Assembly: GCA_964402565.1 (NCBI GenBank)
Contig: CAYOCJ010000002.1
Coordinates: forward strand, 316,659 to 380,658
Direction: 5' to 3'
From: an uncultured Gammaproteobacteria bacterium
GTDB lineage: Bacteria > Patescibacteriota > Patescibacteriia > UBA1558 > 2-01-FULL-52-15
DNA: 64,000 nt
This document shows, piece after piece, positions 33,001 through 62,953 of this stretch; within the stretch, counting starts at the first letter, position 1, and the number at the start of each line of letters is the position of its first letter. Below the pieces are notes generated by a model, which was not told the origin of the DNA, did not search any database, and worked only from the letters and a program-made list of their open reading frames with translations. The translations under genes and the position numbers were made by a program.

Positions 33001-33001
33001 C

Positions 33002-38090: not shown

Positions 38091-38092
38091 AC

Positions 38093-38227
38093 GTGGGAAA
38101 CAAAAAGTATCGCATCGGCATCACGTTGCTCCTGCTCCTCATCCTGTTCCTCTGTTACGTCTACATCCAGAGCAATTCGCAGTCGTCCGATCCTCAGCAA
38201 GACGAACAAGGCATTCGGCTCCACTGA
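38093..38227 (+). CDS. possible 44-aa hydrophobic micro-protein (not in the ORF track)
   Basis: GTG 5 nt after the AAGGAG that overlaps the stop of gene L. Reads VGNKKYRIGITLLLLLILFLCYVYIQ..., a single TM. Confidence 0.3.
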   Translation: MGNKKYRIGITLLLLLILFLCYVYIQSNSQSSDPQQDEQGIRLH

Positions 38228-38258
38228 GCTGATCACACTGAACAAGGAGACCAACGAA

Positions 38259-39203
38259 ATGAACCTGAGCAAGTCCATCAATCGCATCATGTTCGCCCTG
38301 GCGCTGGTCTGCGTCTCGACGCAGCTCTTCGCGCAGACCCCGTTCAAGGTTGCGTCCAACTCGTCGAGCGGCACGTACGACAGGATGCTCGGCGAGATCA
38401 TTGCCGTCTGCAACAGCGACGAGCTGGAGATCGTGAGCGCTGACGTGAAGGGCGGGGCTGTCGGCAACCTGGACGCGCTCTACAACAACAAGGTGAACGC
38501 CGCGTTCATGCATTCCGACGTGTTCATGTCGAGTGCACAGGCCGACCCGAATTACAACCGATTCCAGACCTTGGTCGCGCTCTATCCCGAGCCGATCCAC
38601 GTGTTGGCGCTGAAGGTATCGAAGACCACGGAGAACGGCGCGCTTCACTGGGGGAAGGCTGCCTTCGGCAGTCTTGCGGAGACCAAGGGCTACAAGGTCG
38701 GTGCAGCAGGTGGCGGTGTCGTGACCGCCAGAATCTTGCAAGGGCAAGGTGAAGGCGGTTTCAGCGTCGTGCCATACAATGACGGCAATGAAGTCATTGC
38801 CGCGCTCGACAAGGGCGAGATCGCTGCGGCGATTTTCGTTGGAGCAGCTCCGCTGCCGAACCTGGAAAAACTGGATAAGCAGAAGTACAAGCTCATCCCG
38901 ATCGGCGCAACGATCGAGAACAAGGTCCAGGGCGTGTATCGTCCGGCCTCGGTGAATTACCCGGGCCTGACAAGCGGCCCGCTGCACACACTCGCGCCCA
39001 TGGCCACGCTCATGACCAAGAAGTACACCACGCCGGCCATGATCGACATGCAGCGCAAGTTCAGGGATTGCTTCAATACCCACCTGGGTGAGCTGAAGGA
39101 CGGCCATTCGCCGAACTGGGAATTCGTCGAGGCCGGCGATCACGGCGTACTCACCTGGTACGAGATCCCGCCTGCAGGTCCTGCGGCTCCCAAGAAGAAG
39201 TAA
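38259..39203 (+). CDS. periplasmic solute-binding protein (TAXI-TRAP / PBP2-like fold), secreted (island gene M)
   Basis: Signal peptide MNLSKSINRIMFALALVCVSTQLFAQ. G-rich binding-protein pattern (GAAGGGVVTARILQG...). No transporter partner nearby. Confidence 0.5.
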   Translation: MNLSKSINRIMFALALVCVSTQLFAQTPFKVASNSSSGTYDRMLGEIIAVCNSDELEIVSADVKGGAVGNLDALYNNKVNAAFMHSDVFMSSAQADPNYNRFQTLVALYPEPIHVLALKVSKTTENGALHWGKAAFGSLAETKGYKVGAAGGGVVTARILQGQGEGGFSVVPYNDGNEVIAALDKGEIAAAIFVGAAPLPNLEKLDKQKYKLIPIGATIENKVQGVYRPASVNYPGLTSGPLHTLAPMATLMTKKYTTPAMIDMQRKFRDCFNTHLGELKDGHSPNWEFVEAGDHGVLTWYEIPPAGPAAPKKK

Positions 39204-39257
39204 GTTCCGCGTTTTCTCAATAACACTGTCTAAAAAGGACTGAGCAGACCTGCTGCT

Positions 39258-39294
39258 CCCCGCCATGTCGCATGACCTGGCGGGTTCTTTTTTT
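39258..39294 (+). terminator. rho-independent terminator closing the island operon
   Basis: cccgcca...tggcggg followed by ttctttttttac. Confidence 0.7.
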
Positions 39295-39357
39295 ACTTGG
39301 CTAATTTCATTCCTTACTATATACTAGTCGCGTGAACCTAAGTATTAAAAGGTAACT

Positions 39358-39732
39358 ATGCTTTCAACATCAGTGATATTTGCTACCGCGCCGACGACAG
39401 ATGTCGCCCGCGCCAAAGAGTTCTATACAGAAAAAGTCGGTCTCAAAGTAATGCATGAAGATGAAGCCGGAGTGGCTCTCGAGGCGGGGAGCGGGTCAAG
39501 TATTTATTTGTATAAGCGTGCTCCGTCAAAGGCTGACCATACAGTCGCTTCATTCATGGTGTCCGACATTGACTCAGAAGTGAACGAGCTTCGTTCAAAG
39601 GGCGTGAAGTTTGAAGATTACAATATGCCCGGCCTCACCACCGAAAATGGCATCGCTACCTGGGGCAAGGACAAAGCAGCTTGGTTCAAAGATCCGGATA
39701 ACAATATCATCGGATTGTTTCAGAAAGGGTAA
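39358..39732 (+). CDS. VOC-family (glyoxalase/bleomycin-resistance fold) protein
   Basis: 124 aa, betaalphabetabetabeta pattern, a WFKDPDNNIIGL-type C-terminus. Confidence 0.75.
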   Translation: MLSTSVIFATAPTTDVARAKEFYTEKVGLKVMHEDEAGVALEAGSGSSIYLYKRAPSKADHTVASFMVSDIDSEVNELRSKGVKFEDYNMPGLTTENGIATWGKDKAAWFKDPDNNIIGLFQKG

Positions 39733-39756
39733 GCATTCTTTGCATGGTTTAAAAAA

Positions 39757-39783
39757 ACGCCGGACAGATATCCGGCGTTTTTG
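39757..39783. terminator. bidirectional rho-independent terminator
   Basis: aaaaaaa-cgccgga-cagata-tccggcg-ttttt, lying between convergent genes. Confidence 0.7.
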
Positions 39784-39804
39784 ATGTGACTAGAGACGCA
39801 TCAA

Positions 39805-40407
39805 TTAAACAAGCGAACCAGTTTTGACTTCTCCTGCACGGCTGTAGTAGGCAATGATAACGCCGGCAGGGGAAACTTTTGAATCGATCAGCTTGTAGGC
39901 CGCAGGCATGGTTCCTTCGGCAAATAAGCGTTTCCCTGATCCCAAAGTCACTGGAAAAATCTTTAACCACAATTCATCGATCAAGTCGTTTTGAAGCAAG
40001 GTTTGTATGAAGTTGCCGCTGCCGTATACTTGTAAGTCGCGGCCATCTGCTGCCTGTAGCTGTTTGATCTGGCCGACAATGTCTCCGGTAAGGACCGTGG
40101 TGTTTTCCCACGATGGCTCGAATTGGCTATGCGAAGCAACGTATTTATGAGCATTATTGAACAGATTACCGATATCGTTCGGGTGGTGCGGCCAGTAAGC
40201 TGCAAAAATAGTATATGTTTTTTTGCCGAGCAATAGATCAAATGGTTTGCTCATTTCATCGGCAACCGCCTTGCCGCCGAACTCATCCATATAGGGAAAT
40301 GTCCAGCCCCCGAATGTGAAGTTTCCCGACTTGTCTTCTTCGGGGCCTCCGGGCGCTTGCAGTATGCCATCAAGCGAGATCATGCTGAGGACTATGATTT
40401 TACGCAT
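39805..40407 (-). CDS. dihydrofolate-reductase-like (RibD C-terminal domain) family protein
   Basis: MRKIIVLSMISLDGI...GKKTY...YGSGNFIQTLLQNDLIDELWLKIFPVTLGSGKRLF matches the RibD_C/YwjB pattern. Confidence 0.8.
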   Translation of the reverse strand: MRKIIVLSMISLDGILQAPGGPEEDKSGNFTFGGWTFPYMDEFGGKAVADEMSKPFDLLLGKKTYTIFAAYWPHHPNDIGNLFNNAHKYVASHSQFEPSWENTTVLTGDIVGQIKQLQAADGRDLQVYGSGNFIQTLLQNDLIDELWLKIFPVTLGSGKRLFAEGTMPAAYKLIDSKVSPAGVIIAYYSRAGEVKTGSLV

Positions 40408-46274: not shown

Positions 46275-46574
46275 CTACCCGTTTCCTTGCAGGGACATAA
46301 CCAGTCCCTGAACGCCAATCTGGAGTTTTCCCAGGATATAGCGAGTCCAGCCAGGCTTCGGGGGCACTTCGATTTCAAGTGTCCCCGCGACCGCACGCAT
46401 GATGCATTCGAGTGATCGCGCGTGCGGATACTTGGTTTCCCTTGTATCGCCCGCCAATTCACCTTGCAGTGTGCGCGCAAGAGACGTGATCGCCTCTTTG
46501 CCGAGTCCCTTCCTTTTCAGTTGGGAAAGGGCTCGTTCAAGTTCCACCTGAAATTGAAAGATCCGGTCATCCAT
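46275..46574 (-). CDS. small hypothetical protein on a GC-rich patch
   Basis: About 100 aa from the internal Met MDDRIF. The sequence ...EIEVPPKPGW... is faintly HicB/RHH-like but not assignable. Confidence 0.35.
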   Translation of the reverse strand: MDDRIFQFQVELERALSQLKRKGLGKEAITSLARTLQGELAGDTRETKYPHARSLECIMRAVAGTLEIEVPPKPGWTRYILGKLQIGVQGLVMSLQGNG

Positions 46575-46823
46575 GCGATGTTCTCCTTGTGATAGGAATG
46601 GATGTGCCCGAATACCCAAGCAATTTGGGTTCCAGGTTAACAGCGCATAATATAGCTTTTCTAGGAAAAGTCAACTCTATATGAATCCTAACTTCACTGT
46701 TGTATTCAATAAACATTGACTTTTCGGTACTTTTTTGGTACGGTCGAAAGTCTTTTTGATGTTCATTGACAACCGTCTGTGCGGTTGTCTCCAACCATTC
46801 TGGACACCCTGAGGAGGGAGATA

Positions 46824-49250
46824 ATGCGTACAGCAAAGGTACTAAAGCCTTGGCGACATCAACGCCAAGCACAGCTTGCCATCACAGTAGCACGTGAGTC
46901 AGGCAAGCACGCCGGCCTCATGGTCATGGCAACGGGCTTAGGAAAAAATCTCACGGCAGCACTCGAGTATGAGAAGTTCAGAAGGTCAATGCTCCGTCGT
47001 GGCAAGCGAAGCCGATTGCTCTTCCTTGCACACCAGTCCCACATGCTCGATCAGGCGCGAGAAACTTACGAAATGCGCTTAGGTCGCAGGATCAGCTGCG
47101 GGATGTTTAACGATGTCTTCAAGGAGACAAAGGCAGACGCAGTTTTCGCAACATTCCAGAGCATGGATAAAGTGCTTTTCGGAAAGAAAGGAAAAAAGCG
47201 TCGACCCTTCGGAAGACATGGATTCGACTACGTCATCATCGATGAGTCGCATCACAGCCATGCACACACCTACCGACGGGTCATTCGCTACTTCAAGCCG
47301 CGTTTCACGTTGGCTATGACCGCGACACCTGACAGAGCAGATCTTCAGGACATACGCGATCTCTACGGCCCTGAGGTGTACTCACTCCCTCTCGAGGAAG
47401 GTCTTGCGCGAGGTTTGCTCGCGCCTGTGGACTATCGCCTCGTAACGGATGGATTGCACAAGCTAAGCATTCTCGACACACCGATCGGAAGATTGAGCGT
47501 CAAACGTTTGAACAAGACACTCTTTATTCCAAGGCGTGACGCCGAGATTGCAAAGATCATCCTCCAGCATGCACGGCGTCAGCCTGATGCACGTATGATG
47601 ATCTTCTGTCCTTCGATCAAGTATTGCACCCGTCTCGAACGACACTTACCGAATGCGGTTGCAATTCACTCGAGACTCACTGACAAGGAACAAGCCGATC
47701 GTCAGGCGAAGTTTCGGACAGGCGACTACACAACCGTTTTGACGGTGGACAAGTTCAACGAAGGGATTGATATCCCTGAGGCGAACATCATCGTCTTCCT
47801 TCGCTCCACAGCATCACGCAGGATTTTCCTGCAACAGCTCGGCCGCGGGCTTCGTAAGCTTCGTGGCAAGAGAAACGTCCTCGTCCTAGATTTCGCTGCA
47901 AACTGTGAGCGACTTCAAATGGTGAATACTCTCTGGCGTTCTGTCGACAAAATTAAGCGACAAAGCGCTGGGAAAACCAAGGACCGAGCTGTTTCAGTGG
48001 ACATCGGAAAGGTGAAGTTCTCGCATGTCGCGCAACGGATTCTCGATGTCTTGGGTCGCATCCAAGAAGGGTATACTCGAGAAGTGATCATTGCTCAGCT
48101 CAGAAGCCTTGGAAAACACCTCGATAGGACCCCAATGACAGACGATATCCGAGAGGCGTCTAAAAAAGGTTTGTGCGCAAATCCGACTACGATCTTACGA
48201 CATTTCGGCACCCTGCATGCTGCACTCAAGGCTGCTGGGTTCAGGCCAACACGAGGTTGGGGTGCGACCGAAGATGAGGTCAAGCTCCAAATCAAAGCAG
48301 TCGCTAAAGCACTTGGGCATACACCCACGATCGAAGAGTTGCGAGCCGCTTGGAGGAAAGGCGACATTGTTCACGAAGGCGTCATTCGACGCATCTTCGG
48401 AACTGTCACCGCTGCTTTCGAAGCTGTGGGCCTTGTTACTCGCAAGCCTAAGCACTACACCACAAGCGAGATCAAGAAACAGCTCAAGGAGATTCAAAGA
48501 ACAACTGGAAAAGCACCAACAAGAGCGGAAATAACGAATCGTCACGCAGCCGGTAAAGGTCCGAGTCTTCACATCGTGATCAAGCGCTTCGGCTCTTTCT
48601 CGAAAGCTCTTCTTGCGATAGGCACCCTCGCGACTAACATGATAAAGCCGGTCAAGGGGGGGAAAGCCCATCGTAAAGGCGAGGCCAGCAACAAGTTTGT
48701 GCTTGGCTGCCTCAAACGACTCGAGCGGAGCCTTGGTAGAATCCCTTCGAGAAAGGACGTTGATGTTGCTGCGCGAAAGGGCTTGTGTCTGAGTAGCTCT
48801 ACCTACGCTAAGCGATTCGGGTCTCTTACAGCGGCAAAAAAAGCTGCTGGGATCGAGATTGTTGTTGAGGTGAAGCGAACACGAAAACAACACATTCGCG
48901 ATTTGAAGCGACTCGCAAAGAAACTGGGTAGAACACCTTTCGTAGAGGATGTAAAAGCTGCCTACACGAGACACGAGTGTGGCAGCACATCCATGCTGTA
49001 TAAAGTCTTCGGGTCATTCAACAATGCGCTTGAAGAGGCTGGCCTCACCCCAAACCGAATCCACGAGTACACAGATCAAAGGCTCATCCATTCACTGCAG
49101 GAGCTTGGTCGCAAACTGGGGAGGCCACCGTATAGCATCGATGTAAACCGAGCAAGCAAAGAAAGCGGAGCCTTCCCGGGGCTAGGGCCATTCCTGAAAG
49201 CGTTCGGAACCTTCAGAAAAGCACGGGAGGCGGCGGGCTTCAAGGCCTGA
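46824..49250 (+). CDS. SF2 helicase (ResIII/DEAD-like: motif I GLGKN, motif II DESHH) with C-terminal array of about six homing-endonuclease-associated repeats
   Basis: RBS gaggagggagata-ATG. VMATGLGKN, VIIDESHHSHA, MTATPDR, and a helicase C-domain (QQLGRGLR). The C-terminal roughly 420 aa is made of about 50-aa repeats of the form L..LG+.PT..E....+GL......++FGS...AL..AG. Confidence 0.8.
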   Translation: MRTAKVLKPWRHQRQAQLAITVARESGKHAGLMVMATGLGKNLTAALEYEKFRRSMLRRGKRSRLLFLAHQSHMLDQARETYEMRLGRRISCGMFNDVFKETKADAVFATFQSMDKVLFGKKGKKRRPFGRHGFDYVIIDESHHSHAHTYRRVIRYFKPRFTLAMTATPDRADLQDIRDLYGPEVYSLPLEEGLARGLLAPVDYRLVTDGLHKLSILDTPIGRLSVKRLNKTLFIPRRDAEIAKIILQHARRQPDARMMIFCPSIKYCTRLERHLPNAVAIHSRLTDKEQADRQAKFRTGDYTTVLTVDKFNEGIDIPEANIIVFLRSTASRRIFLQQLGRGLRKLRGKRNVLVLDFAANCERLQMVNTLWRSVDKIKRQSAGKTKDRAVSVDIGKVKFSHVAQRILDVLGRIQEGYTREVIIAQLRSLGKHLDRTPMTDDIREASKKGLCANPTTILRHFGTLHAALKAAGFRPTRGWGATEDEVKLQIKAVAKALGHTPTIEELRAAWRKGDIVHEGVIRRIFGTVTAAFEAVGLVTRKPKHYTTSEIKKQLKEIQRTTGKAPTRAEITNRHAAGKGPSLHIVIKRFGSFSKALLAIGTLATNMIKPVKGGKAHRKGEASNKFVLGCLKRLERSLGRIPSRKDVDVAARKGLCLSSSTYAKRFGSLTAAKKAAGIEIVVEVKRTRKQHIRDLKRLAKKLGRTPFVEDVKAAYTRHECGSTSMLYKVFGSFNNALEEAGLTPNRIHEYTDQRLIHSLQELGRKLGRPPYSIDVNRASKESGAFPGLGPFLKAFGTFRKAREAAGFKA

Positions 49251-49514
49251 CGCAAAGTGAATTTCTATCGGTACCTTCAAGAAGGCCAATCATTCGATTC
49301 AACATCGAGAGACTGGCCTTCTTTTTTTACAAAAAAGTTTCTCGAAACGCGAAAGGCCGCGCCTTTCACAGGCACGGCCTATTCGTCAACTTTCGATTTG
49401 GCTCCCAGCCTGCTGAACAAAATTCGAAATCCCGGCGGGGCGGTATATCCTCTTGCGCAGTATCATTTTGAGAGGTACTGTGCATCATACGATCTTTCAA
49501 ACACGGAGGAAACC

Positions 49515-50099
49515 ATGAGACTCTTTTGCGCATGCGTATTGTTTCTCGGACTTGCGGGGATCGGCAACGCTTTGGCGAGCGGCCAATGTTCACCGGCGCC
49601 GCTACCTCCGAAAGAGGAACGGACCGATGATTTCTGGAAGGGGTATTTGAAAGAAAACCTCACCAACTGTTACGGTGAGCTGCATCCGCAAATCAACGCA
49701 TCAGTCATTGGCATTGAGCCCACTGATTGGATTTCATCAAACTGGTGCCCATTGACATGTGCTATTATCATGAGCAGGCCCTTCCTTGATTCTACGGATG
49801 AGCCATATGAAATTCTCTTTGTGCTTGGCCATGAGGCCGGGCATATTGCTCTCAGCGGGAGGGACTTTGCTCATGCGATTGGCCTCGAGGAAGTCGAATA
49901 TGCCGCAGACCTCATTGCCGTACAGGCTATTCCATCTGGAGCCTGCCATGGCGCTCGGGCATTGCAGTGGATATACGATGCGGCATCGAAATCAAAAGCA
50001 CTACCGCCTGAAGCTAGGCAAAAAGTGTTGGAGGAAATACGACAGCGGAGAAAGGCTCTCTTAGCCAAATGTGCAGTAGACGCGGTATTAGTCAAATGA
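49515..50099 (+). CDS. secreted HExxH zinc-metallopeptidase-like protein
   Basis: RBS acggaggaaacc-ATG at MRLFCACVLFLGLAG (signal peptide). HEAGH motif at VLGHEAGHIAL. Confidence 0.55.
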   Translation: MRLFCACVLFLGLAGIGNALASGQCSPAPLPPKEERTDDFWKGYLKENLTNCYGELHPQINASVIGIEPTDWISSNWCPLTCAIIMSRPFLDSTDEPYEILFVLGHEAGHIALSGRDFAHAIGLEEVEYAADLIAVQAIPSGACHGARALQWIYDAASKSKALPPEARQKVLEEIRQRRKALLAKCAVDAVLVK

Positions 50100-50107
50100 A
50101 AAAATCT

Positions 50108-50137
50108 AGAGGGATTTACACAATCCCTCTTTTTTTA
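50108..50137 (+). terminator. rho-independent terminator
   Basis: agagggatt-tacac-aatccctct followed by ttttttt. Confidence 0.75.
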
Positions 50138-50188
50138 CTTATCGAATGTAGTGTGCGATATGATCTACTCAAAAAGATTTGCTCGAAG

Positions 50189-50330
50189 CTACATTATGGC
50201 GACTGGATTTTTTCATGGTTCCGCCCATTCGGCAAGCTCAGGGCGTCGCAAAAAAGATAAAACCGCCAGAAGAAATCTGACGGTTTTATCTTGGCTCCGC
50301 GAGTCGGATTCCGCTTCGCTAGACCCTTTC
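50189..50330. repeat. two partial direct copies of the tRNA-Asn 3' end plus flank (att-like scars)
   Basis: 50193-50217 (ttatggcgactggattttttcatgg) is identical to 50461-50485. 50293-50312 (tggctccgcgagtcggattc) is identical to the tRNA 3' end at 50484-50503. 50218-50233 is a degenerate copy of the same segment. Confidence 0.7.
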
Positions 50331-50482
50331 TGATTTCCCCCGACCCCCATCTCGGACACCTTCGATTTCCGACGCTCGTTACACTCGCTGCCTTCCACCC
50401 ACGGGGGAAATCCGGTTCGAATCCTCTGAAAATCCAAATCAATGAAAAAATCCACTCACCTTATGGCGACTGGATTTTTTCA

Positions 50483-50557
50483 TGGCTCCGCGAGTCGGAT
50501 TCGAACCGACGACCCATTGGTTAACAGCCAATTGCTCTACCGCTGAGCTATCGCGGA
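50483..50557 (-). tRNA. tRNA-Asn (GTT)
   Basis: Reverse complement reads TCCGCGA-TA-GCTC-AGCGGTA-GAGC-A-ATTGG-CTGTTAA-CCAAT-GGGTC-GTCGG-TTCGAAT-CCGAC-TCGCGGA-G-CCA. Confidence 0.88.
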
Positions 50558-50607
50558 ATGAATGCGCGAATCATTGTAAATGTTCTTGACTCCGAAGTCA
50601 ACCCGTC

Positions 50608-50823
50608 TTATCGCGTTAGCCGGCCCCATGAAAAAGCGTTCCATACGCGTTCATGGAAATAATACAGAACAGCGCTGCCGAGATTCGTTGCGATAATGAC
50701 GCCTACGGTCGCATCGACCCGATGCGTGAACAGATATACGATCGTGAAATCTGAAATGATGATCACAATACGGTACGTAATGGATTTTGCGATGGATCGC
50801 TTGTGCCGTTCGAAATGAAACAT
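50608..50823 (-). CDS. DUF2061-family small membrane protein
   Basis: RSIAKSITYRIVIIISDFTIVY... pattern. Confidence 0.6.
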   Translation of the reverse strand: MFHFERHKRSIAKSITYRIVIIISDFTIVYLFTHRVDATVGVIIATNLGSAVLYYFHERVWNAFSWGRLTR

Positions 50824-50826
50824 AGA

Positions 50827-51525
50827 TTATCGAAAGAGGTTAAATTTTATAATTGCTGCCATGGCGCTGATGCCGTCTTTCCAGTTGATTTTCTTGCCTT
50901 CGGCATAGGTTCTGCCGCTGTACGAAATGCCTACTTCAAATATCCTGAGCTTCTGTTTTGCGATCATGGCCGTCAGTTCTACTTCAATGGTGAATCGATT
51001 GGATGTCAGCTTTGATTTGATCGAATCAAGCGCTTTCTTCGTGAAGACCTTATAGCAGGTTTCCATATCGCTGACATTCAGGTTGGTGAACATATTCGAC
51101 AGCAGAGTCAAAAAGCGATTGCCGACCTGATGCCAGAAATAGAGGACGCGATGCGGGCCTGAACCGGTAAACCGGGAACCATAGACAACATCTGCACGGC
51201 CATCAATCAAAGGAGCGAGGAGAGTTGGGTATTCATTTGGGTCATATTCGAGATCTGCGTCCTGTATCAGAATGAAATCGCCAGTGGCCAGATCAAATCC
51301 CTTGCGGACCGCAGCGCCCTTGCCCTGATTTTTTTCCTGATAATGCACGCGGGCCACGCGCGATTCAAGTTTCTTGAGCTCGTCGGACGTTCCATCGGTC
51401 GAATGGTCATCAATAATAATGATCTCTTGTGTCAGATTAGGCAGCTGCACAGCAGACACGCGGTCGACGAGATGCGCGATCGTATCTTTTTCATTAAAGA
51501 CCGGAATGATGATCGAAAGTTTCAT
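50827..51525 (-). CDS. GT2-family glycosyltransferase (dolichyl-phosphate sugar synthase-like)
   Basis: LSIIIPVFNE...IIIDDHSTDGT...DAD.E motifs. Confidence 0.88.
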   Translation of the reverse strand: MKLSIIIPVFNEKDTIAHLVDRVSAVQLPNLTQEIIIIDDHSTDGTSDELKKLESRVARVHYQEKNQGKGAAVRKGFDLATGDFILIQDADLEYDPNEYPTLLAPLIDGRADVVYGSRFTGSGPHRVLYFWHQVGNRFLTLLSNMFTNLNVSDMETCYKVFTKKALDSIKSKLTSNRFTIEVELTAMIAKQKLRIFEVGISYSGRTYAEGKKINWKDGISAMAAIIKFNLFR

Positions 51526-52934
51526 GCAGTATGTTTTGATCGCACCGGCCGCAAACCCGTCATGCAGATCGTTTGGATGGCGAATAGTGCAATGATGCTG
51601 TTAATAGGAAAACGGAATCGTGCATTTACCGCTAAACCATCGCTCAGGGTCGTCAGTGCAAAATATCCGATGAGAAGTATGCAGCAGACAGCCAGCGGGT
51701 CAAATGTTTTTTTGATGCACCGGTATAGGATACCCCATATGCATAGGGCTGCAAGTGCGAACCATATGATCCGCAGCAACACAACGATCCATAACAGGGG
51801 TGATTTCGCAAAAAGTGAAAATGCATGAAATGCTGAAGACATGGTCGGATCGGTTAGTGCAGTCCGTATCTCGCTACTGACAGATTTTTCGACATGCAAG
51901 CCGACGATACTTCCAAGATCGATCATGCCGTCATGCGTTGCAAATGTGGCGCTATTCACAAGAAAGACTTTAAAGAGCGCATAGGGATAGGGGCGTATCG
52001 CCGCGATCGCATCGTTTCTAAATTGTTTTGCATCGGCTGTGGAGATCGAGGGCTGTGCGCTCAAACCATGTGCATGATAAAAATCTAAGGTGGCCGTCTT
52101 TTCGTCTATGTGATTCTGTACGGCAAGCACGGACGGAGCAAGCTCTATATACAGCGCAGCTTCTTTGATAGAGGAAAATGACCCGACGCCATAGACGCGC
52201 ATATTCCGCAATGACCATGGTATGACGCAAAGCAGGAAGACTGCAATACCTGTGGCAGCTGCAATCAACGCTCGTTTATTTCTGAAGCTCCTTGCCAAGA
52301 AAAAAGGCAGGATCAGGATCGGCATATAGAAGGTCGTTGGCCTGAATACGGCTGTGCAACCGAGCATGAGGCCGGCTAATGCAGCAGCACGCGTCAATGC
52401 ATGCGTCTCGCCCGACCGTACCATAGAGATAATCTTCTGAATAAGCAGGAAAAAAAGCAGCAAGGCGAAGGTAAAGAAAGTCTCGGTCAGAATTTTCACC
52501 GAAAGAAGAATGCCGCCAGGTTCAAATGCGAAAAGAAAACCGACGATGGTAGAAATTTTTTCAGGGACTCCGCCATTCAGCAGGATGCGCCTTGTCAGGA
52601 CCGGGAGTGTACTGCCGACGATGATCTGCAAGACCACGAACAGCCATGCGCCATTCGGCAGCATCATAAAAGGCGCCAGCAAGAGCGGCAAACCAGGAGA
52701 GCGGTAGGTATCCAAAAAAAAGGGAGCTTCGCTTGCATACGAATAGCCATTTCCTCGCACGAGGTTGTCGGCGATCTCATAGTAGCCGTCTTCGTGCTGT
52801 AATCCAAGAGAATGCGCTGAGATGATGAGCACGATCAAGCGAATGACAAGCGCTATGCCGAAAATAAAAAAAACAGCCCTTTTATTCTGACGTCCGCTTC
52901 CGGTTTGATCTGCGTGTGTAGAGGGCTGATCCAT
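51522..52934 (-). CDS. GT39/ArnT-like membrane glycosyltransferase (dolichyl-phosphate-mannose protein mannosyltransferase family)
   Basis: Polytopic (at least 10 TM) with an acidic first periplasmic loop (QHEDGYYEIADNLV). 4-nt overlap with the GT2 gene. The start is trimmed to MDQPS so that it does not overlap tRNA-Pro. Confidence 0.6.
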   Translation of the reverse strand: MDQPSTHADQTGSGRQNKRAVFFIFGIALVIRLIVLIISAHSLGLQHEDGYYEIADNLVRGNGYSYASEAPFFLDTYRSPGLPLLLAPFMMLPNGAWLFVVLQIIVGSTLPVLTRRILLNGGVPEKISTIVGFLFAFEPGGILLSVKILTETFFTFALLLFFLLIQKIISMVRSGETHALTRAAALAGLMLGCTAVFRPTTFYMPILILPFFLARSFRNKRALIAAATGIAVFLLCVIPWSLRNMRVYGVGSFSSIKEAALYIELAPSVLAVQNHIDEKTATLDFYHAHGLSAQPSISTADAKQFRNDAIAAIRPYPYALFKVFLVNSATFATHDGMIDLGSIVGLHVEKSVSSEIRTALTDPTMSSAFHAFSLFAKSPLLWIVVLLRIIWFALAALCIWGILYRCIKKTFDPLAVCCILLIGYFALTTLSDGLAVNARFRFPINSIIALFAIQTICMTGLRPVRSKHTA

Positions 52935-52967
52935 TGATCCTAAATATCGGCTAAAGTTCTCTAGAAA

Positions 52968-53043
52968 TGGTCGGGGTGACCCGACTTGAACGGGCGACCT
53001 CATGCACCCCATGCATGCGCGCTAGCCAACTGCGCCACACCCC
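52968..53043 (-). tRNA. tRNA-Pro (GGG)
   Basis: Reverse complement reads CGGGGTG-TG-GCGC-AGTTGGCTA-GCGC-G-CATGC-ATGGGGT-GCATG-AGGTC-GCCCG-TTCAAGT-CGGGT-CACCCCG-A-CCA. Confidence 0.85.
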
Positions 53044-53069
53044 GTAACATAGTGATATGAATTGAAAGC

Positions 53070-53154
53070 TTGGTGCCGGAGGAGGGACTCGAACCCTCAA
53101 ACCTTTCGGTACACGATTTTGAGTCGTGCGTGTATACCAGTTTCACCACTCCGG
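53070..53154 (-). tRNA. tRNA-Leu (CAA)
   Basis: Reverse complement reads GCCGGAG...CACGA-CTCAAAA-TCGTG with a long variable arm...GAGGG-TTCGAGT-CCCTC-CTCCGGC-A-CCA. Confidence 0.85.
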
Positions 53155-53235
53155 CATTTTTTATCGGATTGTACTATACCGAGTTGGATGCGCAAAGTCA
53201 ATATCTATAAGCAAAACATGCTATAGTATATAGGT

Positions 53236-55898: not shown

Positions 55899-57752
55899 TT
55901 ATACCGCCGCGAGATGGTGTTTCTCGATCTTCACCACGCTGTTGCGGAAGTCACGCATGTACTCGGTCAGCTCATCCTGGTGGTTGAGATCGAGATTTTG
56001 TCCATAGACGTTGGCGACTGCATGATCAAGGTCGTGCCTCGAGATACCGCTTTGCTTTCGGTTCTTGATGTCACGACGGATGGCAAGCGATGTTGCTTGG
56101 TCGACGATGCCTGCGATCATACCTCCGTTGACGATGTGCCGGAGGCTAAACAGTTTCTGGCTGACGACTCCTTTGTTCAGCACCGAAACATCGTAAAGGG
56201 CGAGATCCTCGGCGTAGAGCTTTTCAGCGGCGTAGGCAGCCATGTTCGACCGCGTGTAGCCGTTGTCGAAAGGAACATCACGGAGATGCAGCGAGAAGAT
56301 GTCAGTTGCGCTCCGGACATCCGGCCGCGTAACCCTGATCTTGCGGTCGATGCGACCATCACGAACGATCGCCGGATCCAAAACGTCAGAACGGTTCGTG
56401 GCGAGTATTACGATCGCACCGCTATCGTCGAGTCCGTCCATTTCAGCGAGGAACATCGGAACGATGGTTGACTCCATGTCAGAGCTGACGCCGGAACCGC
56501 GTTTTCGCAGAATGGATTCAGCCTCGTCGATAAAGATCACCGCCGGATAACCGTTGTCCAGGCGATGTTTACGTGCACGCGCGAAGAGCTGCCGGATCGC
56601 AGCCTCGGAGTCGCCGACCCAGCGGGTCAGGATCTCAGGACCTTTGACGTAGAGAAAGCCGCTCGGGGCGCTGTTGCCATCGCCATGGAGCCGTGACATC
56701 GCCGTCGCCGTTGCTTTCGCAAGCATTGTTTTGCCGCAGCCCGGAGGTCCGTAGAGCAGAACGCCCTTGATCGGCCGCTTGTTGTAGTGGCGATATAGGC
56801 TTCGCTCACGCAGCGGCAACTCTATAGCCTCGATCATTTCCGTTTTGGCGGTTTCGAGTCCGCCGATGTCATCCCACGAAACGTCGGATAACTCCGTCAG
56901 CGTGAAAGATTCTTCCTCACGGTCGAGTCTCTGGATGATGATCGAAGCAGATGCATCGAGGATTACGCGGTCGCCTTTCTCGAGGTGAAAGTGCTGACCA
57001 CATAAAACGACACGTTTTTGATCTTGATGTTCTACTTCGCACAAGTCGTTGTCGAGCCGTTGTACCACCGTCGAGATGTCGCCGTTGGTGAAGCCTTCCA
57101 CGACTTTGACGATCTGGCGAGACTCCGGCGACAGCTTGACGGTGTCACCTGCGCGGACGTCCTCGTCTTTGGGTAGCATCACCTCCATCAACGTACCGTC
57201 GAAGTAGATCACAGCCGTTGACGGAACCGGGAGACCGTCGACAAGATCCAAGTCAATGGGGCCATAACGACTGTCACAATTGTAAGAATTTTCGTAGCCG
57301 TCAGCGAAACGAACTACCGCTGTCAGGCTACCTTCTTGTTCTCGGAAGATCGTACCGATCCCAGCGTTCTGATAGTAGTACTCGCTATTTTTCGAGATAC
57401 GAACACGAGTGCCTTTTGTAAAAGCACTTAAGTCCGGATCGGCCGGCATGATCCTGATCACTGTTGCCATGGGCATCGGCAGAGCCGTGAGCTGCTTCAG
57501 GCGAGAGTTCTGCTCCAGCAGCTTTTCTTTTGCCAGGACCAGAGCTTCACGAAGCCTGAAGGCATCCTTGCCTTCTTTTTCGTCAACTTCCTGATATCTT
57601 GCAAGCTTGTCTTCGAGCTCGGCAACGTACGCACGAGACGGAAGAGTGTCGTCTTGAACGATCGTAGCTGGAGCTTCGTGCTCTTGTCGATGATGTTCAC
57701 CTGTCTTCTGTTGAGGATGGTCTGCTTTGGGGGTTTTTTTGTTGGACCACAT
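55899..57752 (-). CDS. ARC/Mpa-type proteasome-associated AAA ATPase
   Basis: N-terminal coiled coil, OB-fold region, then DIGGLETAKTEMIEAIELPLRERSLY...GVLLYGPPGCGKTMLAKA (Walker A), VIFIDEAES (Walker B), ATNRSDVLDPAIVRDGRIDRKI (second region of homology). Confidence 0.85.
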   Translation of the reverse strand: MWSNKKTPKADHPQQKTGEHHRQEHEAPATIVQDDTLPSRAYVAELEDKLARYQEVDEKEGKDAFRLREALVLAKEKLLEQNSRLKQLTALPMPMATVIRIMPADPDLSAFTKGTRVRISKNSEYYYQNAGIGTIFREQEGSLTAVVRFADGYENSYNCDSRYGPIDLDLVDGLPVPSTAVIYFDGTLMEVMLPKDEDVRAGDTVKLSPESRQIVKVVEGFTNGDISTVVQRLDNDLCEVEHQDQKRVVLCGQHFHLEKGDRVILDASASIIIQRLDREEESFTLTELSDVSWDDIGGLETAKTEMIEAIELPLRERSLYRHYNKRPIKGVLLYGPPGCGKTMLAKATATAMSRLHGDGNSAPSGFLYVKGPEILTRWVGDSEAAIRQLFARARKHRLDNGYPAVIFIDEAESILRKRGSGVSSDMESTIVPMFLAEMDGLDDSGAIVILATNRSDVLDPAIVRDGRIDRKIRVTRPDVRSATDIFSLHLRDVPFDNGYTRSNMAAYAAEKLYAEDLALYDVSVLNKGVVSQKLFSLRHIVNGGMIAGIVDQATSLAIRRDIKNRKQSGISRHDLDHAVANVYGQNLDLNHQDELTEYMRDFRNSVVKIEKHHLAAV

Positions 57753-57784
57753 GCCTCAGTCTCCTTGTGACCTGTTTGTTGCGT

Positions 57785-58111
57785 TTACTGCAAACGTACG
57801 TCGACAGCTCGTTCCACCTTTGTTCCGTTCTCGTCATCGACCGTTCCGATAAGGAACGTCACGTTGAGACCGCGCGCGAGTGCGATGTTTTCGTGCACAG
57901 AAGCAACGATAAACTTGCGCCCGTCGTAGGTACTCGTGGTGTCTTTGACTCGCACTTTCCAAAGAGTGGCTCGAGATGCAGGGTCGGCCCCAACGACGTA
58001 TCCTTGATGCCTTTTTTCGATCATGGGCTTCTCCTGTTGACTATAGACCTTCTGACCTTTATACATCCAACGACTTATCGTCGTAATTGGGACAATGTGA
58101 GTAATTTCCAT
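57785..58111 (-). CDS. hypothetical protein, first gene of the ARC cassette
   Basis: 108-aa ORF on the same strand as ARC, 33 nt upstream of it. Confidence 0.45.
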   Translation of the reverse strand: MEITHIVPITTISRWMYKGQKVYSQQEKPMIEKRHQGYVVGADPASRATLWKVRVKDTTSTYDGRKFIVASVHENIALARGLNVTFLIGTVDDENGTKVERAVDVRLQ

Positions 58112-58185
58112 AATTTTTAAGGGACTGATAAAACATAAAGATATAGTATATTAAATGATTTTTGTCAATCCAATTCGTTAATCGA

Positions 58186-58231
58186 TAAAAAAGAAAACGG
58201 CCCCGGTCCACACGAACGTGTGGCCGGGGCC
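58186..58231 (-). terminator. palindromic terminator, copy 2 of the 45-bp repeat (centre AA instead of TT)
   Basis: taaaaaagaaaacggccccggtccacacgAAcgtgtggccggggcc, minus-strand terminator after the serpin-like gene. Confidence 0.65.
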
Positions 58232-58236
58232 GCAAG

Positions 58237-59118
58237 TTATGCGAGGCCCGAAGGCTTCTTCCAGTCGTCGTGACCGATGTGGCCGACAAACAACGGCTTG
58301 CTGAAGCCATGCCTGGTGAAGCAGACGAGGAAAGGCTTGTCGATGATGTAGACCGTCTTCGGCTTCGAGGCGCCCAGACGCATAATGCCGATCGCAGCAG
58401 CGCTCTCGGCTCGCGCGCCGACCTCGTTCATCCGAAGCTTGGTTTGCTGCTTCGCCTGCGAGACGATTGCAGGCCGACCGTCAACGCCCTTGGTGTTCAG
58501 TCCGCGGAGCCACGAGATGTCGACCTCTTGGTTCAGATCGACCATGGGGAAAATGACGCCTTCGTGCTCATCGTCGATATCGTCCGGTTCGAGCAGCCTG
58601 TCTGCCAGGCTGATGAGGTCGAAATCCTTCGGAGGATCATCCACGATGGACAGGTGGACCATGTCTCCGGACTTGGTTTTGATCATGATGACCGGATGCC
58701 GGTGCTTCGCCACGCGATAGATGATGTGGCCCTTGTCCATGCGCACGGCAGGGTAGGGCGTATCGTCCGCGGTCACGATCTGAGTTTCTGATCCTTTCGC
58801 CTCCCATTCCACGAGCAGGTCGAGTACGCTCGCGACGCCGAACTCGTTCGGGTCGAAGCGATCGAGCTGGATGCGGAAGCCTTTTTTCCTTAGGAAGGCG
58901 TTGATCTCGTCAGCGCTTTTCGAAGCGAGGCTCTCGATCTCCGGCAGCCTGCCGATCTCGTCGCGGTTGCGCCTGAAGAATTCGTCAAGGAATCTCGACT
59001 GCATGCGGTTCTTCGGGGACCAGAGCCTGTGAGCTCCCATGCCAGGCATTTCTTCCGCTGCGACCAGGGCCGCTACGATCGGATAGGTGACTACGGTTTG
59101 GCTTTCGGTTGCGATCAC
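58237..59118 (-). CDS. serpin-like protein (C-terminal serpin signature; possibly N-terminally truncated)
   Basis: EVGARAESAAAIGIM (hinge, compare GTEAAAAT), DKPFLVCF (compare DHPFLFLI), PLFVGHIGH (compare ILFMGRV.NP). Only 293 aa versus about 380-400 for full serpins. Confidence 0.4.
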   Translation of the reverse strand: MIATESQTVVTYPIVAALVAAEEMPGMGAHRLWSPKNRMQSRFLDEFFRRNRDEIGRLPEIESLASKSADEINAFLRKKGFRIQLDRFDPNEFGVASVLDLLVEWEAKGSETQIVTADDTPYPAVRMDKGHIIYRVAKHRHPVIMIKTKSGDMVHLSIVDDPPKDFDLISLADRLLEPDDIDDEHEGVIFPMVDLNQEVDISWLRGLNTKGVDGRPAIVSQAKQQTKLRMNEVGARAESAAAIGIMRLGASKPKTVYIIDKPFLVCFTRHGFSKPLFVGHIGHDDWKKPSGLA

Positions 59119-59257
59119 GCCTTCTCCTTTTTGCCTTTTGGCAGTTAAAGTGCGACTTCTTGCTGCGATGCAAGAAACCGCAAATATTTGCAGGAAATGA
59201 AGTAAATGTCAATTTTTTTATCCACGTTTAATAAAAAAGCATTTGATTTTAATGTTA

Positions 59258-59286
59258 TTGACAATGTTGCCTGAAAAGTGTATAAG
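59258..59286 (+). promoter_or_regulatory. sigma70 promoter (TTGACA-17-TATAAG) for the PspA-like gene
   Basis: ttgaca at 59258-59263, tataag at 59281-59286. Confidence 0.5.
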
Positions 59287-59340
59287 TCTTTGATCATCGT
59301 CCAATCACGGATGATGAGTTCCAATACACATGAGGTGCCC

Positions 59341-60018
59341 ATGCCGCTCCTGAAACGGTTCTACGACCTGCTTCACGACAAGCTCAGCGCCGGCGTCGAC
59401 AAGGCTCAGGATCCCGAAGACAAGATCCGTGCCGTGATGCACAGCATCACGGACCAGGCGCCTGCGGTGCGCCAGGCCACAGCCGAGCCCATCGCTCGCT
59501 ACACCGATCTGCTTTCCCGCAGCGAAGCCATGAAGGTGAAGGTCACTGCGCTCGAGGCCAAGGCGCGCGGAGCCATCGGCAAAAACGACGAGGCCGCACG
59601 CGCCTACGCGACGCAGCTTGTCGACGCCAGGGCCGAAGCGGCCAGGATCGACGCACAGCTCGCGACCGCGAAGGAACGGGCGGACCAAGCCCGCCAGCAC
59701 TACGCCGACTGGAAGGAGAAGGTCGACGCGATGCACAGCCAGGCCATGGATGCTCTCGGCGAAGCCGAACGCGCCAAGGCGCAGAGGGTCTACAACGAGA
59801 CCATGCGCACGCTCGACAGCACAAGCCTCGACAGCAGCTTCGCGGAAGCGACGAACGCCGTCGCCATGGAGGCGCGCAAGGCCGACGCCGAGGCAACGCT
59901 CGACGAGGATCCGACAGCGGCAGCGGTCAAGGCATACGACAACCAGCAGCGTACCGCTGCGGTGGACGAGGTTCTGAAGAGCCTCGCCGCATCGCAAGAT
60001 GCCGCAACCCCGGCCTAA
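59341..60018 (+). CDS. PspA/IM30 (Vipp1/LiaH) family protein
   Basis: LLKRFYDLLHDKLSAGVDKAQDPEDKIRAVMHSITDQ matches the PspA N-terminal pattern (...lLdkaEDPeK.l.q...em...). The remainder is coiled coil. The start is trimmed to MPLLK. Confidence 0.7.
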   Translation: MPLLKRFYDLLHDKLSAGVDKAQDPEDKIRAVMHSITDQAPAVRQATAEPIARYTDLLSRSEAMKVKVTALEAKARGAIGKNDEAARAYATQLVDARAEAARIDAQLATAKERADQARQHYADWKEKVDAMHSQAMDALGEAERAKAQRVYNETMRTLDSTSLDSSFAEATNAVAMEARKADAEATLDEDPTAAAVKAYDNQQRTAAVDEVLKSLAASQDAATPA

Positions 60019-60196
60019 CAAAGGCCGGTCTACTATCGGTGCAGGTGTTCCCCTCGGAATGCCTGCACCTTTTCTTTATAATAGTGGAAACGAAATGGTT
60101 GACTTTTTTATCAATATTTGTTAGAAGTATCGGTTGCTCTTTAACACGCTATTCGAGAAAATATTGAAAAAAACGGAGGTTCTTCTCGTGATACAA

Positions 60197-61177
60197 ATGA
60201 TCCTCGGTAAGCCTGTCGACGAATTCGTTTATCGGTATGTCCCGGGCTTGTGGGTGATCACCCCGTATTACAATCCAATGGGCTACCAGACCCGGCGCCG
60301 CAACTACGAGATCTTTTCTCGCGTCTTGCGAAACTCCGGCATTCCGCTCATCACGGTCGAATGCGTATTCGGCGATCAGAAGTTCGATCTTCCTGAGTCA
60401 CCGGACGTGATCCGGCTGAAGAGCGAGTCCATGCTGTGGCAGAAAGAGCGTCTGCTCAATCTCGCCATCTCATGGCTGCCGCCATCCTGCACCGCAGTTG
60501 CGTGGCTTGATTGCGATCTGATGTTTACGAACCCGAACTGGGCTCAGGAGACTGTGGCGCGTCTGCACGATGCAGCGGTTGTTCAAGTCTTCGAGACTTG
60601 TAACCGCTTGCCGCAGCAGTATGCGGATCCCTCTGCACATGGAGACATCTGCACTTCCTTCGGCAGCGTGCTGTCACAGGATCCTTCACAGTACGCTACA
60701 GGCAATTTCGCGAATCACGGTCACACCGGATACGGCTGGGCTGCGCGAAGGGACATCCTCGACAAACACGGGCTCTACGAAGCAGCAATAGCCGGATCGG
60801 CGGACCATTATATGGCCCATGCTGCGGTCGGTGATTTCGATTCAGTGTGCATCACTCGCCACATGAGCAGAAACCCTACGCTCAAGCGGCATTACCGCGA
60901 CTGGGCCGAGTCGTTCTATGAGTCGGTCGGCGGCAAGCTGCAGGCAGTGTCAGGCACTGTGCTGCATCTGTGGCATGGAGAGCTCGCGGATCGAAAATAT
61001 TCGCTACGCCATCTCGAACTCGAAGCTCTGCAGTTCAATCCGTACACTGATCTGGTTTCGCATCCCGGCAAACCGCTGGAGCTGAAGCCCAGTAGTCGAA
61101 CTGAGGAATTGATTCGCTGGTTCGGCATGTATTTCGCGAGCCGGCGAGAAGACGGACCATTAACCGCAACGATATGA
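60197..61177 (+). CDS. hypothetical protein (possibly a nucleotide-sugar transferase-like fold)
   Basis: RBS acggagg then GTG/ATG. VITPYYNP...DCD pattern is only weakly GT-A-like. Confidence 0.5.
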   Translation: MILGKPVDEFVYRYVPGLWVITPYYNPMGYQTRRRNYEIFSRVLRNSGIPLITVECVFGDQKFDLPESPDVIRLKSESMLWQKERLLNLAISWLPPSCTAVAWLDCDLMFTNPNWAQETVARLHDAAVVQVFETCNRLPQQYADPSAHGDICTSFGSVLSQDPSQYATGNFANHGHTGYGWAARRDILDKHGLYEAAIAGSADHYMAHAAVGDFDSVCITRHMSRNPTLKRHYRDWAESFYESVGGKLQAVSGTVLHLWHGELADRKYSLRHLELEALQFNPYTDLVSHPGKPLELKPSSRTEELIRWFGMYFASRREDGPLTATI

Positions 61178-61187
61178 CGGAGGACCC

Positions 61188-62327
61188 ATGGCTGACAAAC
61201 GGGTGTTTCTGACCGAGCTCGACTCTCACGCAGACAGCTTGCGACGTGCATTCGAACAGATGGGCCAGACGATCCAGGATAACGGTCGCGATCTCGACGC
61301 GCTGCGAAAAACTCGCAGCAAGCGGATCGGCGAGTACATCGACGAGATTCTGCCGGACCTCAGTCCGGCCTCGATCACTCAGCTGAACGCGAAGCTTCCA
61401 GGCGCTGCCACGACGGAGCAAGTCGTGTCGCTCATCGCAGGAATGAAGCAGACCTACCAAGGTCAGGTCGACCGCCTGCTCACGACCTACGACCCCAAGT
61501 CCTACGAAGGAACCAAGATGGGCCTGGAGGTCAAACTCCAGGAAGCCGAGAGAGACCTCGACTATGTGAAAGCTCCGCTCGACGGCCTCAAGGCCATCCC
61601 GGATCTCTCGCGTCTCATGCAGAGCGGTTATGGCACCGATGCCTACCCGCATGGCTTCCTCAACAGCCAGTACTACCGCGACTGGAAAGCAGCCGACGCG
61701 GCTGTCGAGCGGGCTGGAAACGTCAGGAACTGGGTCGAGCTCGCTGCACGGTATCGTACCGCAGCCGGCAACGTGATCACCGTCGGAGCGCGAGTCGCAT
61801 CAGTTCGCAAGCAGATCGAAACGCTGACTTCCCTGCACGACGAATACGAGAACGCGAAGGCTGCGCTGGACCAGGTTCCGCAGAAAGCGCGGGAGACGAT
61901 CTCAGTGAAGGTCAGGTCGAAGCTCGATGCTTTGGATCCGATGCCTGACTGGGCATCCGACATCGCGAACTTGGACAAGAAGATCGCGGCCAAGGTGGAC
62001 GAGACTTCGAAGCTTCAGGAAACCCAAGGCAAGATGTCCGAACAGATCGCGAGCATGCAGAAGATCAAAGCGCAGGCAACGCGCAGCAGGGATAACCAAG
62101 TCCCTGACAAGTACCTGCAGGCGATTCGCCAGACCAGGCCCTTCGGCGCATCCGGAGGCAGCTCGCACACCGTGTACGTGAACGACAATAGCTGGCTGCT
62201 GCCGATGATCCTGTACACGGAGATGGGAAATCACTTTTCCAGCGACCGTGCCTACCGCGACGGGCGTGAGGATCAGCGCCAAGCTGACTACGCATACGCG
62301 CACGCCGATCGCAGCGGCAACTCCTAA
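61188..62327 (+). CDS. hypothetical helical protein, 379 aa
   Basis: RBS gacggaggaccc-ATG. Confidence 0.55.
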   Translation: MADKRVFLTELDSHADSLRRAFEQMGQTIQDNGRDLDALRKTRSKRIGEYIDEILPDLSPASITQLNAKLPGAATTEQVVSLIAGMKQTYQGQVDRLLTTYDPKSYEGTKMGLEVKLQEAERDLDYVKAPLDGLKAIPDLSRLMQSGYGTDAYPHGFLNSQYYRDWKAADAAVERAGNVRNWVELAARYRTAAGNVITVGARVASVRKQIETLTSLHDEYENAKAALDQVPQKARETISVKVRSKLDALDPMPDWASDIANLDKKIAAKVDETSKLQETQGKMSEQIASMQKIKAQATRSRDNQVPDKYLQAIRQTRPFGASGGSSHTVYVNDNSWLLPMILYTEMGNHFSSDRAYRDGREDQRQADYAYAHADRSGNS

Positions 62328-62366
62328 ACCTACAACGTTTCTATTTCCATTTGGAGGAAGAGACCG

Positions 62367-62918
62367 ATGACGTACAAGACGTTCGTGCGCGTGGTCTGGG
62401 TTCTGGGGATCGTGCTCGTCATTTCGATGGGCTATTGCGTGAAGAACTGTGCGAGCAGCCATGCTTCGGCCGAAGCCCAGGTTCAGACCGGCACGGTGGT
62501 GACGCAGGCGTATATCCCGCCGGCTCCTGTCCGCGCACCCGACCCTGAACCTCCGGTTCGCCACGTCGCTCCGGCGGCTGCCTCGGGGCCGCTCACCGCT
62601 TCTCGCATGTACTCGACCGATGAGCTTGCCGCCAAGATCGAGGGCTTCCTCTCGGCTCACGGCAAGAACCGCGGACGCCAGCAATGGGTGAATTGCATGC
62701 CGGAGGAGCCTTTCCGCGCGACGGCAGTCCGTTTCAAAGAAGCGGACGCGGTCAAATGGTCGAATGACCCTGACCAGTGGTCGCAGGTCCGCCTCGACCT
62801 CGATCGCGACGGTCGCGACGATGAGAAGTGGCTCCTGAAAAACGGCCACACCTACAAGCGAGAGGTGCTCGGGCCTGACGGCAAGAGCGTCGTCAAGACC
62901 GAATACGTCAAGAGGTAG
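62367..62918 (+). CDS. membrane-anchored hypothetical protein with Pro-rich linker
   Basis: RBS ggaggaagagaccg-ATG. One N-terminal TM. Confidence 0.55.
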   Translation: MTYKTFVRVVWVLGIVLVISMGYCVKNCASSHASAEAQVQTGTVVTQAYIPPAPVRAPDPEPPVRHVAPAAASGPLTASRMYSTDELAAKIEGFLSAHGKNRGRQQWVNCMPEEPFRATAVRFKEADAVKWSNDPDQWSQVRLDLDRDGRDDEKWLLKNGHTYKREVLGPDGKSVVKTEYVKR

Positions 62919-62953
62919 GAGAAGCGTCTGAGTAATTTCTCGAATTGTAAGCT

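Follow-up and report, generated by a model that had tools for sequence, protein, structure and literature searches.

The tRNA-Asn gene in the window (the whole stretch of DNA that was analysed, 64,000 nt long) is followed on its own strand by two short direct copies of its 3' end: an exact 20-nt copy (copy B) and a 34-nt copy that takes in downstream flank as well (copy C). There is about an even chance that these are relics of at least one site-specific insertion, of the tyrosine-integrase type, into the 3' end of the gene, with nearly the whole inserted element subsequently lost; this reading is drawn from sequence features. The repeats, their sharp bounds and two unrelated hairpins, each of which starts at a CCA, are observed directly.

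ARAGORN and Rfam agree on the position of an intact minus-strand tRNA-Asn(GTT) gene (Table 1). Upstream of it lies a sigma-70-like sequence that presumably serves as its promoter, this function being suggested by the pattern match. On the minus strand the elements follow one another in the order tRNA-CCA, hairpin 1, a 130-nt spacer (spacer X), copy B, hairpin 2, a run of six T, a 29-nt spacer and copy C; beyond copy C come unrelated sequence and then the bidirectional terminator of a converging peptidase gene. The DNA between the repeats amounts to 171 nt and 233 nt, all of it non-coding, and the repeat spacings are 191 and 267 nt. Partial copies are seen for none of the other five tRNAs of the window (blastn-short within the window).

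Table 1. Features at the tRNA-Asn locus, in positions of the window
Feature	Position	Strand	Description	Score or method
Sigma-70-like promoter (putative), TTGACT-17-TACAAT	50573..50601	-	16 nt upstream of tRNA-Asn	consensus scan, 10/12 positions
Intact tRNA-Asn(GTT)	50483..50557	-	CCA encoded, without intron	ARAGORN; Rfam RF00005, 73.4 bits, E=1.7e-15
Repeat 1, master copy	50483..50502	-	last 20 nt of tRNA-Asn: 3' half of T-loop (GAAT), T-stem, acceptor strand, CCA; putative attL core	
Repeat 2, master copy	50458..50491	-	9 nt of tRNA 3' end, first arm and loop of hairpin 1	
Hairpin 1	50442..50483	-	starts at CCA of the real tRNA; arms 50442-60 / 50465-83, A and T tracts on both sides	dG -25.3 kcal/mol, z -7.9
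Spacer X	50312..50441	.	non-coding, between hairpin 1 and copy B	
Repeat 1, copy B	50292..50311	-	exact 20-nt tRNA 3' end; putative attR core (displaced original tRNA end)	20/20 identity
Hairpin 2	50248..50292	-	starts at CCA of copy B; arms 50254-70 / 50276-92, T6 run on minus strand	dG -24.8 kcal/mol, z -7.8
Repeat 2, copy C	50191..50224	-	34-nt copy, 2 mismatches	blastn-short E=4e-10

The 20-mer TGGCTCCGCGAGTCGGATTC has two exact sites in the window (blastn-short E=6.5e-6); it is matched in none of the shuffles and nowhere else in the 64 kb, even when up to 3 mismatches are permitted. Both copies lie in the orientation of the tRNA, one within the intact gene and one on the same strand 3' of it, and a direct repeat of the 3' part of a tRNA arranged in this way is what is looked for in a pair of att sites. 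So is the extent of copy B, a block of identity that runs from a known sublocation of tRNA genes (the T-loop) to the 3' end, with unrelated sequence on its flanks. Copy B is without TTC, the 5' half of the T-loop, and without the 5' arm of the T-stem, and the 55 tRNA bases that precede the 20-mer have no counterpart 5' of it (alignment scores at or below the shuffle means). Similarity falls to chance on both sides of copy B, which argues that it is a recombination junction and not a decayed gene; that it has the anatomy of an attR is partly supported.

Both of the ...GCGGAGCCA ends lead directly into strong hairpins, with T runs after each. Hairpin 1, part of which was flagged by the terminator scan, appears to be bidirectional and terminator-like; hairpin 2, whose 17-nt-arm stem has the inverted repeat GATAAAACCG/CGGTTTTATC (50256-50290) as its core, is likewise terminator-like in appearance. 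In sequence the two hairpins are unrelated (their alignment is no better than alignments of shuffles). It is this combination, perfect identity up to the CCA and then different, equally strong hairpins, that favours an integrase scar as the origin of copy B: an attP that supplies both a working tRNA end and a terminator of its own would leave two unrelated hairpins, each at a CCA.

Spacer X has no Pfam match for any of its ORFs at E<=1 and no Rfam match at E<=10. Phage and plasmid searches with it matched nothing except the tRNA itself, and hairpin 1, hairpin 2 and pieces of spacer X are unmatched in the phage, plasmid, viral-contig and metagenome collections. In alignments spacer X resembles neither the tRNA nor the group I introns found in relatives (see below); the possibility that it is an intron remnant or the rest of a tRNA is ruled out by these alignments, compared with shuffles, and by Rfam. 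A tRNA-like minihelix (TCCGAGA...GTCGG...CCGAC-TCGCGGA; 50356-50292), spotted by eye, is not the minimum-free-energy fold and gains no support from alignment statistics. Rfam finds no second tRNA in the region at E<=10, and TRF finds no tandem array at the locus. A T-loop-like motif (C[CG]GTTCGAATCCT) occurs in inverted orientation at 640-653 (+) and 50411-50424 (+), ~55-70 nt downstream of the minus-strand tRNA-Ser and tRNA-Asn genes respectively, and these are the only GTTCGAATC sites of the window outside tRNA genes. A shared element 3' of the two genes, built on the inverted T-loop-like GGTTCGAATCC, was considered and set aside (the match is just a 14-mer and was equalled in 6 of 300 shuffles); the presence of the motif downstream of both may be coincidence.

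The second repeat is of a different kind. Its 25-mer core, TTATGGCGACTGGATTTTTTCATGG, has exactly two sites in the window, 50194-50218 and 50461-50485, and 100 dinucleotide shuffles yielded no match to it with up to 3 mismatches permitted; with 2 mismatches the match grows to the 34 nt of copy C. Copy C begins in the acceptor strand, with 9 nt of tRNA (GCGGAaCCA), runs 25 nt past the end of the gene and terminates in the loop of hairpin 1. The second hairpin arm is missing from it and it does not fold (dG -4.7 kcal/mol, z +1.5). The 66 tRNA bases that precede the 9-mer have no counterpart 5' of copy C (alignments compared with shuffles), so copy C too reads as a recombination junction rather than as a gene in decay. 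Copy C does not match a simple attR: it ends in the hairpin 1 loop and carries attL-type flank beyond the putative attR, an arrangement that is not producible by a single integration, and therefore a second event is needed. An A-tract word, ATGAAAAAATC, recurs at 50095-50106, 50441-50452, 50206-50216 and 50473-50483, that is, at the stop codon of the peptidase gene, in the arms of hairpin 1 and in copy C; it is able to pair with the copy C arm across 93 nt. This recurrence is probably a chance similarity of low-complexity sequence.

The original prediction had pointed to two partial direct copies of the tRNA-Asn 3' end and its flank, and these prove to be real and non-random (unique in the window and without a match in shuffles), each lying one base away from where it had been placed (the 25-mer at 50194-50218 and not 50193-50217, the 20-mer at 50292-50311 and not 50293-50312). 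The 25 nt that were taken to follow the tRNA do recur exactly, but the last 3 of them are the tRNA's own CCA, so that the flank contributes 22 nt. Of the 'degenerate tRNA 3' end' seen beside the 25-mer, the 9 tRNA bases can be recognised, six of them in addition to the CCA, and nothing further rises above shuffles. An exact 20-nt copy of the tRNA end with a different flank is confirmed, as is a perfect 10-bp inverted repeat, now placed within a larger hairpin. As for att-site scars, the term suits the attR-like anatomy of copy B and does not suit copy C.

The proposed events would have begun with recombination between tRNA-Asn and an element that brought along a copy of the final ~20 nt of the tRNA (T-loop to CCA) and a terminator of its own. 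The working tRNA would then end in element-derived sequence and hairpin 1 (attL), and the original 3' end of the host gene, with its original terminator (copy B and hairpin 2), would have been displaced downstream (attR). Deletion would have shrunk the element to the 171 nt between attL and attR, of which spacer X would be the remnant. Copy C would duplicate 34 nt across the attL junction, as far as the hairpin 1 loop, and would stem either from a second recombination, at the very 3' end of the gene, or from a structure-mediated illegitimate duplication. In the ancestral empty site the tRNA would have been fused to hairpin 2, with the junction ...GTCGGTTC/GAATCCGACTCGCGGAGCCA/AGATAAAACCG..., and the attP of the free element would have been CGCGGAGCCATGAAAAAATCCAGTCGCC preceded by non-tRNA sequence. 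That an integrase was the maker, which of the copies is the original and in what order the events took place are what we infer from this arrangement.

No close relative that would allow occupied and empty states of the locus to be compared is present in the collections searched. Exact matches to the neighbouring proteins come only from one 513-kb NCBI contig and from the Logan assemblies of SRR12313479/80, and the next-best homologues are 55-62% identical. When genome contigs were scanned with the neighbouring GT2 protein, which is very widely conserved, 80 loci came back, at <=64% identity, none of them with a tRNA-Asn gene nearby. A metagenome scan with the last 26 nt of the tRNA found two loci (contigs L083 and L084), both from distant relatives and with different gene order. 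In both of these, tRNA-Asn (L084 286-610, minus strand; L083 11528-12170, plus strand) holds a group I intron at anticodon-loop position 35/36 (Rfam RF00028, 56 and 90.9 bits, respectively), unlike the intron-free gene of the window (50483-50557). Group I introns in the tRNA-Asn genes of Patescibacteria have been described previously (PMC13011429); ARAGORN misses such intron-split genes. In L084, tRNA-Leu(CAA), tRNA-Pro(GGG) and tRNA-Asn stand back to back (286-945). The window has the same Leu and Pro genes (~89% identical to those of L084) three genes away from tRNA-Asn (region 50608-53155), the intervening genes encoding a GT39-like membrane protein, a GT2 glycosyltransferase and a DUF2061 protein. 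In L083, tRNA-Asn follows rpoD, at the place that the two tRNA-Met genes occupy in the window. The tRNA-Asn gene has therefore moved, or its surroundings have been rebuilt, several times in this lineage.

What speaks for an integration scar is the exactness of the repeats, their direct orientation, their position 3' of the tRNA and their uniqueness within the window. On the other side, the ORFs that were scanned, together spanning most but not the whole of the window, have no Pfam match to an integrase family, and an integrase gene was found neither beside the putative tRNA-proximal att site nor within the element. The 171-nt and 233-nt segments are ruled out by their size as integrase-coding, and the small ORFs in them have no Pfam match at E<=1. 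A further point against it comes from the flank downstream of tRNA-Asn in L083, which weakly resembles hairpin 1 and not hairpin 2 (shuffle fraction 0.066); if real, this likeness conflicts with hairpin 2 being the native terminator. An attempt to tell the native hairpin from the flanks of relatives gave this one marginal result (hairpin 1 against L083, 0.066), the remaining comparisons being at chance.

An account that dispenses with integrase altogether is the main rival, and the less likely of the two. It takes copy B as the stump of a second, tandem tRNA-Asn gene with a terminator of its own (hairpin 2), from which the 5' 55 nt were recently deleted, and copy C as a local illegitimate duplication. 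Both changes would have broken the DNA within the loop of a hairpin (the T-loop in one case, the hairpin 1 loop in the other), as is expected of slipped or template-switch replication at palindromes. Paralogous tRNA genes are identical and have differing flanks, so identity that ends at CCA beside unrelated hairpins is what they would show; copies B and C do each have one boundary in a hairpin loop; the ORFs scanned hold no integrase and there is no element-sized DNA between repeats whose spacings are very short (191 and 267 nt). In such an account, though, the T-loop break point is coincidental; for an att site it is the expected boundary. Nor is any tRNA similarity left over 5' of copy B, or any tandem-repeat structure; and both of the relatives retrieved have a single tRNA-Asn without a tandem copy (in L083, 243 nt downstream are visible). 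The residual similarity along the tRNA that a pseudogene or decayed tandem tRNA gene would show is absent from the alignments: tRNA positions 1-55 against spacer X and 1-66 against Y score no better than shuffles.

It is improbable that the locus is an assembly artefact or the consensus of a strain mixture, with a metagenome contig joined at short shared words near the tRNA and no single genome that has the copies side by side. The source does look like a metagenome assembly (the restricted origin of the exact protein matches has been given above), and two Logan contigs end at 50323 and 50513, so that 50324-50512 is without independent confirmation. On the other hand, Logan contigs match 46350-50323 and 50513-52997 without a mismatch, and the first of them (L082), the product of a different assembler, contains copy C, hairpin 2, copy B and 12 nt beyond, the start of spacer X. 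The arrangement of copy C, hairpin 2 and copy B is thus confirmed by an independent assembly, 50324-50512 excepted. At 20 and 25 nt, even the longest exact repeats fall below the k-mer size of Logan (k=31). Genes on either side have homologues of Patescibacteria type, and metagenome contigs are expected to break inside tRNA genes (contig L001 likewise ends within tRNA-Pro).

Two further alternatives give the locus a present-day activity. The att-flanked segment of 171-233 nt would, in the first, be a live miniature non-autonomous integrative element that uses the tRNA-Asn 3' end and is moved in trans by an integrase encoded elsewhere in the genome or by a phage, which we regard as a long shot. 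The 3' end stays available to such an element in a lineage in which the anticodon loop of this gene often holds a group I intron. The second, a function at the level of RNA, has a still smaller probability: tandem back-up terminators whose mimics of the tRNA end would attract 3'-processing enzymes, or RNAs from distal repeats of the tyrT kind. Two strong hairpins in series 3' of the tRNA and perfect or near-perfect identity in both repeats would suit such a function, and the distal repeats of the E. coli tyrT operon do hold the last 19 nt of tRNA-Tyr. A tandem unit is absent here, however, no Rfam family, RtT included, matches at E<=10, the minihelix upstream of copy B is backed by neither the minimum-free-energy fold nor alignment statistics, and copy C is unfolded. 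A dispersed, MITE-like miniature repeat that resembles the tRNA end by chance, for which no evidence turned up, is scarcely credible, and in this the original prediction is upheld as far as 64 kb shows: both repeats are confined to this locus within the window even with 3 mismatches, the 20-mer occurs among 87 fetched loci only in L082 (this locus again) and in L083 and L084, there as part of the real tRNA-Asn gene, and the repeats are not in the viral collection, nor is the hairpin-1 word in the metagenome collection.

The integration-scar reading does not extend to the neighbouring genes. The helicase gene (46824-49250, plus strand) encodes a ResIII/Helicase_C core followed by six C-terminal HNH_repeat (PF18780) units. 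Its product has >3600 homologues, the named ones from Parcubacteria, Patescibacteria and related groups, and some of them are fused to sigma-70 and RNase III domains (P0092, P0105, P0122), which points tentatively to a transcription-linked housekeeping function and away from defence. The closest relatives (53-55% identity) stand in other contexts, without tRNA-Asn or the peptidase; one close relative adjoins a His_Phos_1 gene, as the helicase of the window does. Helicase and peptidase as a defence system were considered and rejected: PADLOC matches are limited to the generic helicase core (models for Type IV restriction and PbeA), while nothing matches the peptidase. No further copy of the tRNA end or of its flank brackets the two genes anywhere in the 64 kb, and the marks of a genomic island (a bracketing repeat, foreign composition or a patchy, mobile distribution) are absent from them. 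The helicase and peptidase genes are outside the relic and are not its cargo.

Several observations on the peptidase ORF stand apart from this. Its start is most likely the ATG at 49515 (49515-50099, plus strand), the 86 upstream codons of the GTG-started ORF (49257-49515) overlapping the terminator-like hairpins of the helicase gene. The product begins MRLFCACVLFLGLAGIGNALASGQC, which resembles a lipoprotein signal, and exactly this 194-aa product was called independently in a Logan assembly. The match to peptidase M48 is weak (E=2e-4) and covers the HExxH region only. The window also shows GC steps, ~0.55-0.59 in 26000-40000 and 56000-64000 against ~0.43-0.52 elsewhere, which could reflect mosaic ancestry or a chimera of binning or assembly.

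The bolder statements of the original prediction accordingly need trimming. That no integrase is left agrees with the ORFs scanned, most though not all of those in the window; a 'classic footprint', with none in those ORFs and with 171 and 233 nt of non-coding DNA between the repeats, is an overstatement, and a 'hotspot' has just two short repeats as its basis. The suggestion that helicase and peptidase are cargo of a decayed element does not hold, there being no bracketing repeat in the window, a helicase that is widespread in Patescibacteria and an ordinary composition; the base composition of 45-50.5 kb, proposed as a check, is not distinctive (GC 0.47-0.52; range over the window 0.43-0.59).

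The locus is most likely of a type that is already known, an ordinary genomic scar without its element, and with no integrase in the ORFs scanned. If the integration-scar reading is right, the locus records the use of a tRNA gene as a target by integrative elements in a lineage with small genomes, probably of Patescibacteria, whose mobile elements are poorly charted, and it also supplies an exact junction sequence for searches of reads. For annotation, the two fragments are not tRNA genes, and the helicase and peptidase genes are not to be labelled island cargo.

Among known arrangements, the tyrT operon of E. coli (rtT; Rfam family RtT) has a whole 178-bp unit that is tandemly repeated, each unit with the last 19 nt of tRNA-Tyr. 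Common to tyrT and this locus are the recurrence of a tRNA 3' end, CCA included, downstream of the gene and the absence of mobile-element genes; here the recurring parts are no longer than 20 nt and 34 nt, unrelated DNA lies between them, TRF finds no array and RtT has no match at E<=10. CIMEs (cis-mobilizable elements) are att-flanked remnants of integrative elements without an integrase of their own. They resemble this locus in placing att-like repeats around DNA that is devoid of recombination genes, but known CIMEs are kilobases long, against 171-233 nt here, and for them the use of the sites by the integrase of a related element has been demonstrated.

The remaining comparison is with the attL and attR of tRNA-borne islands and prophages. 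From these the present locus differs in having no integrase in the ORFs scanned, no cargo and only 171 nt between the copies, in a repeat that is without the 5' half of the T-loop, in the extra 34-nt copy C beyond the putative attR, and in its host, which is probably a Patescibacteria (CPR) bacterium. Integrases cross over in the anticodon loop, in the T-loop or at the 3' end of the gene, according to two sources (PMC1762012; bioRxiv 10.1101/2020.11.02.365908; both citing Williams 2002). In the asn-tRNA islands of Enterobacteriaceae, attB has its start in the T-loop and the inserted DNA is found 3' of the gene, and some islands retain repeats only, or neither repeats nor integrase (bioRxiv 10.1101/2020.11.02.365908). 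With those islands (the ICEKp/HPI family and GI-E492) and with mycobacteriophage Ms6 at tRNA-Ala, the locus shares a complete tRNA with a direct partial copy of its 3' end downstream (PMC9897764; PMC1762012; bioRxiv 10.1101/2020.11.02.365908), and a block of identity that extends from T-loop to CCA between unrelated flanks.
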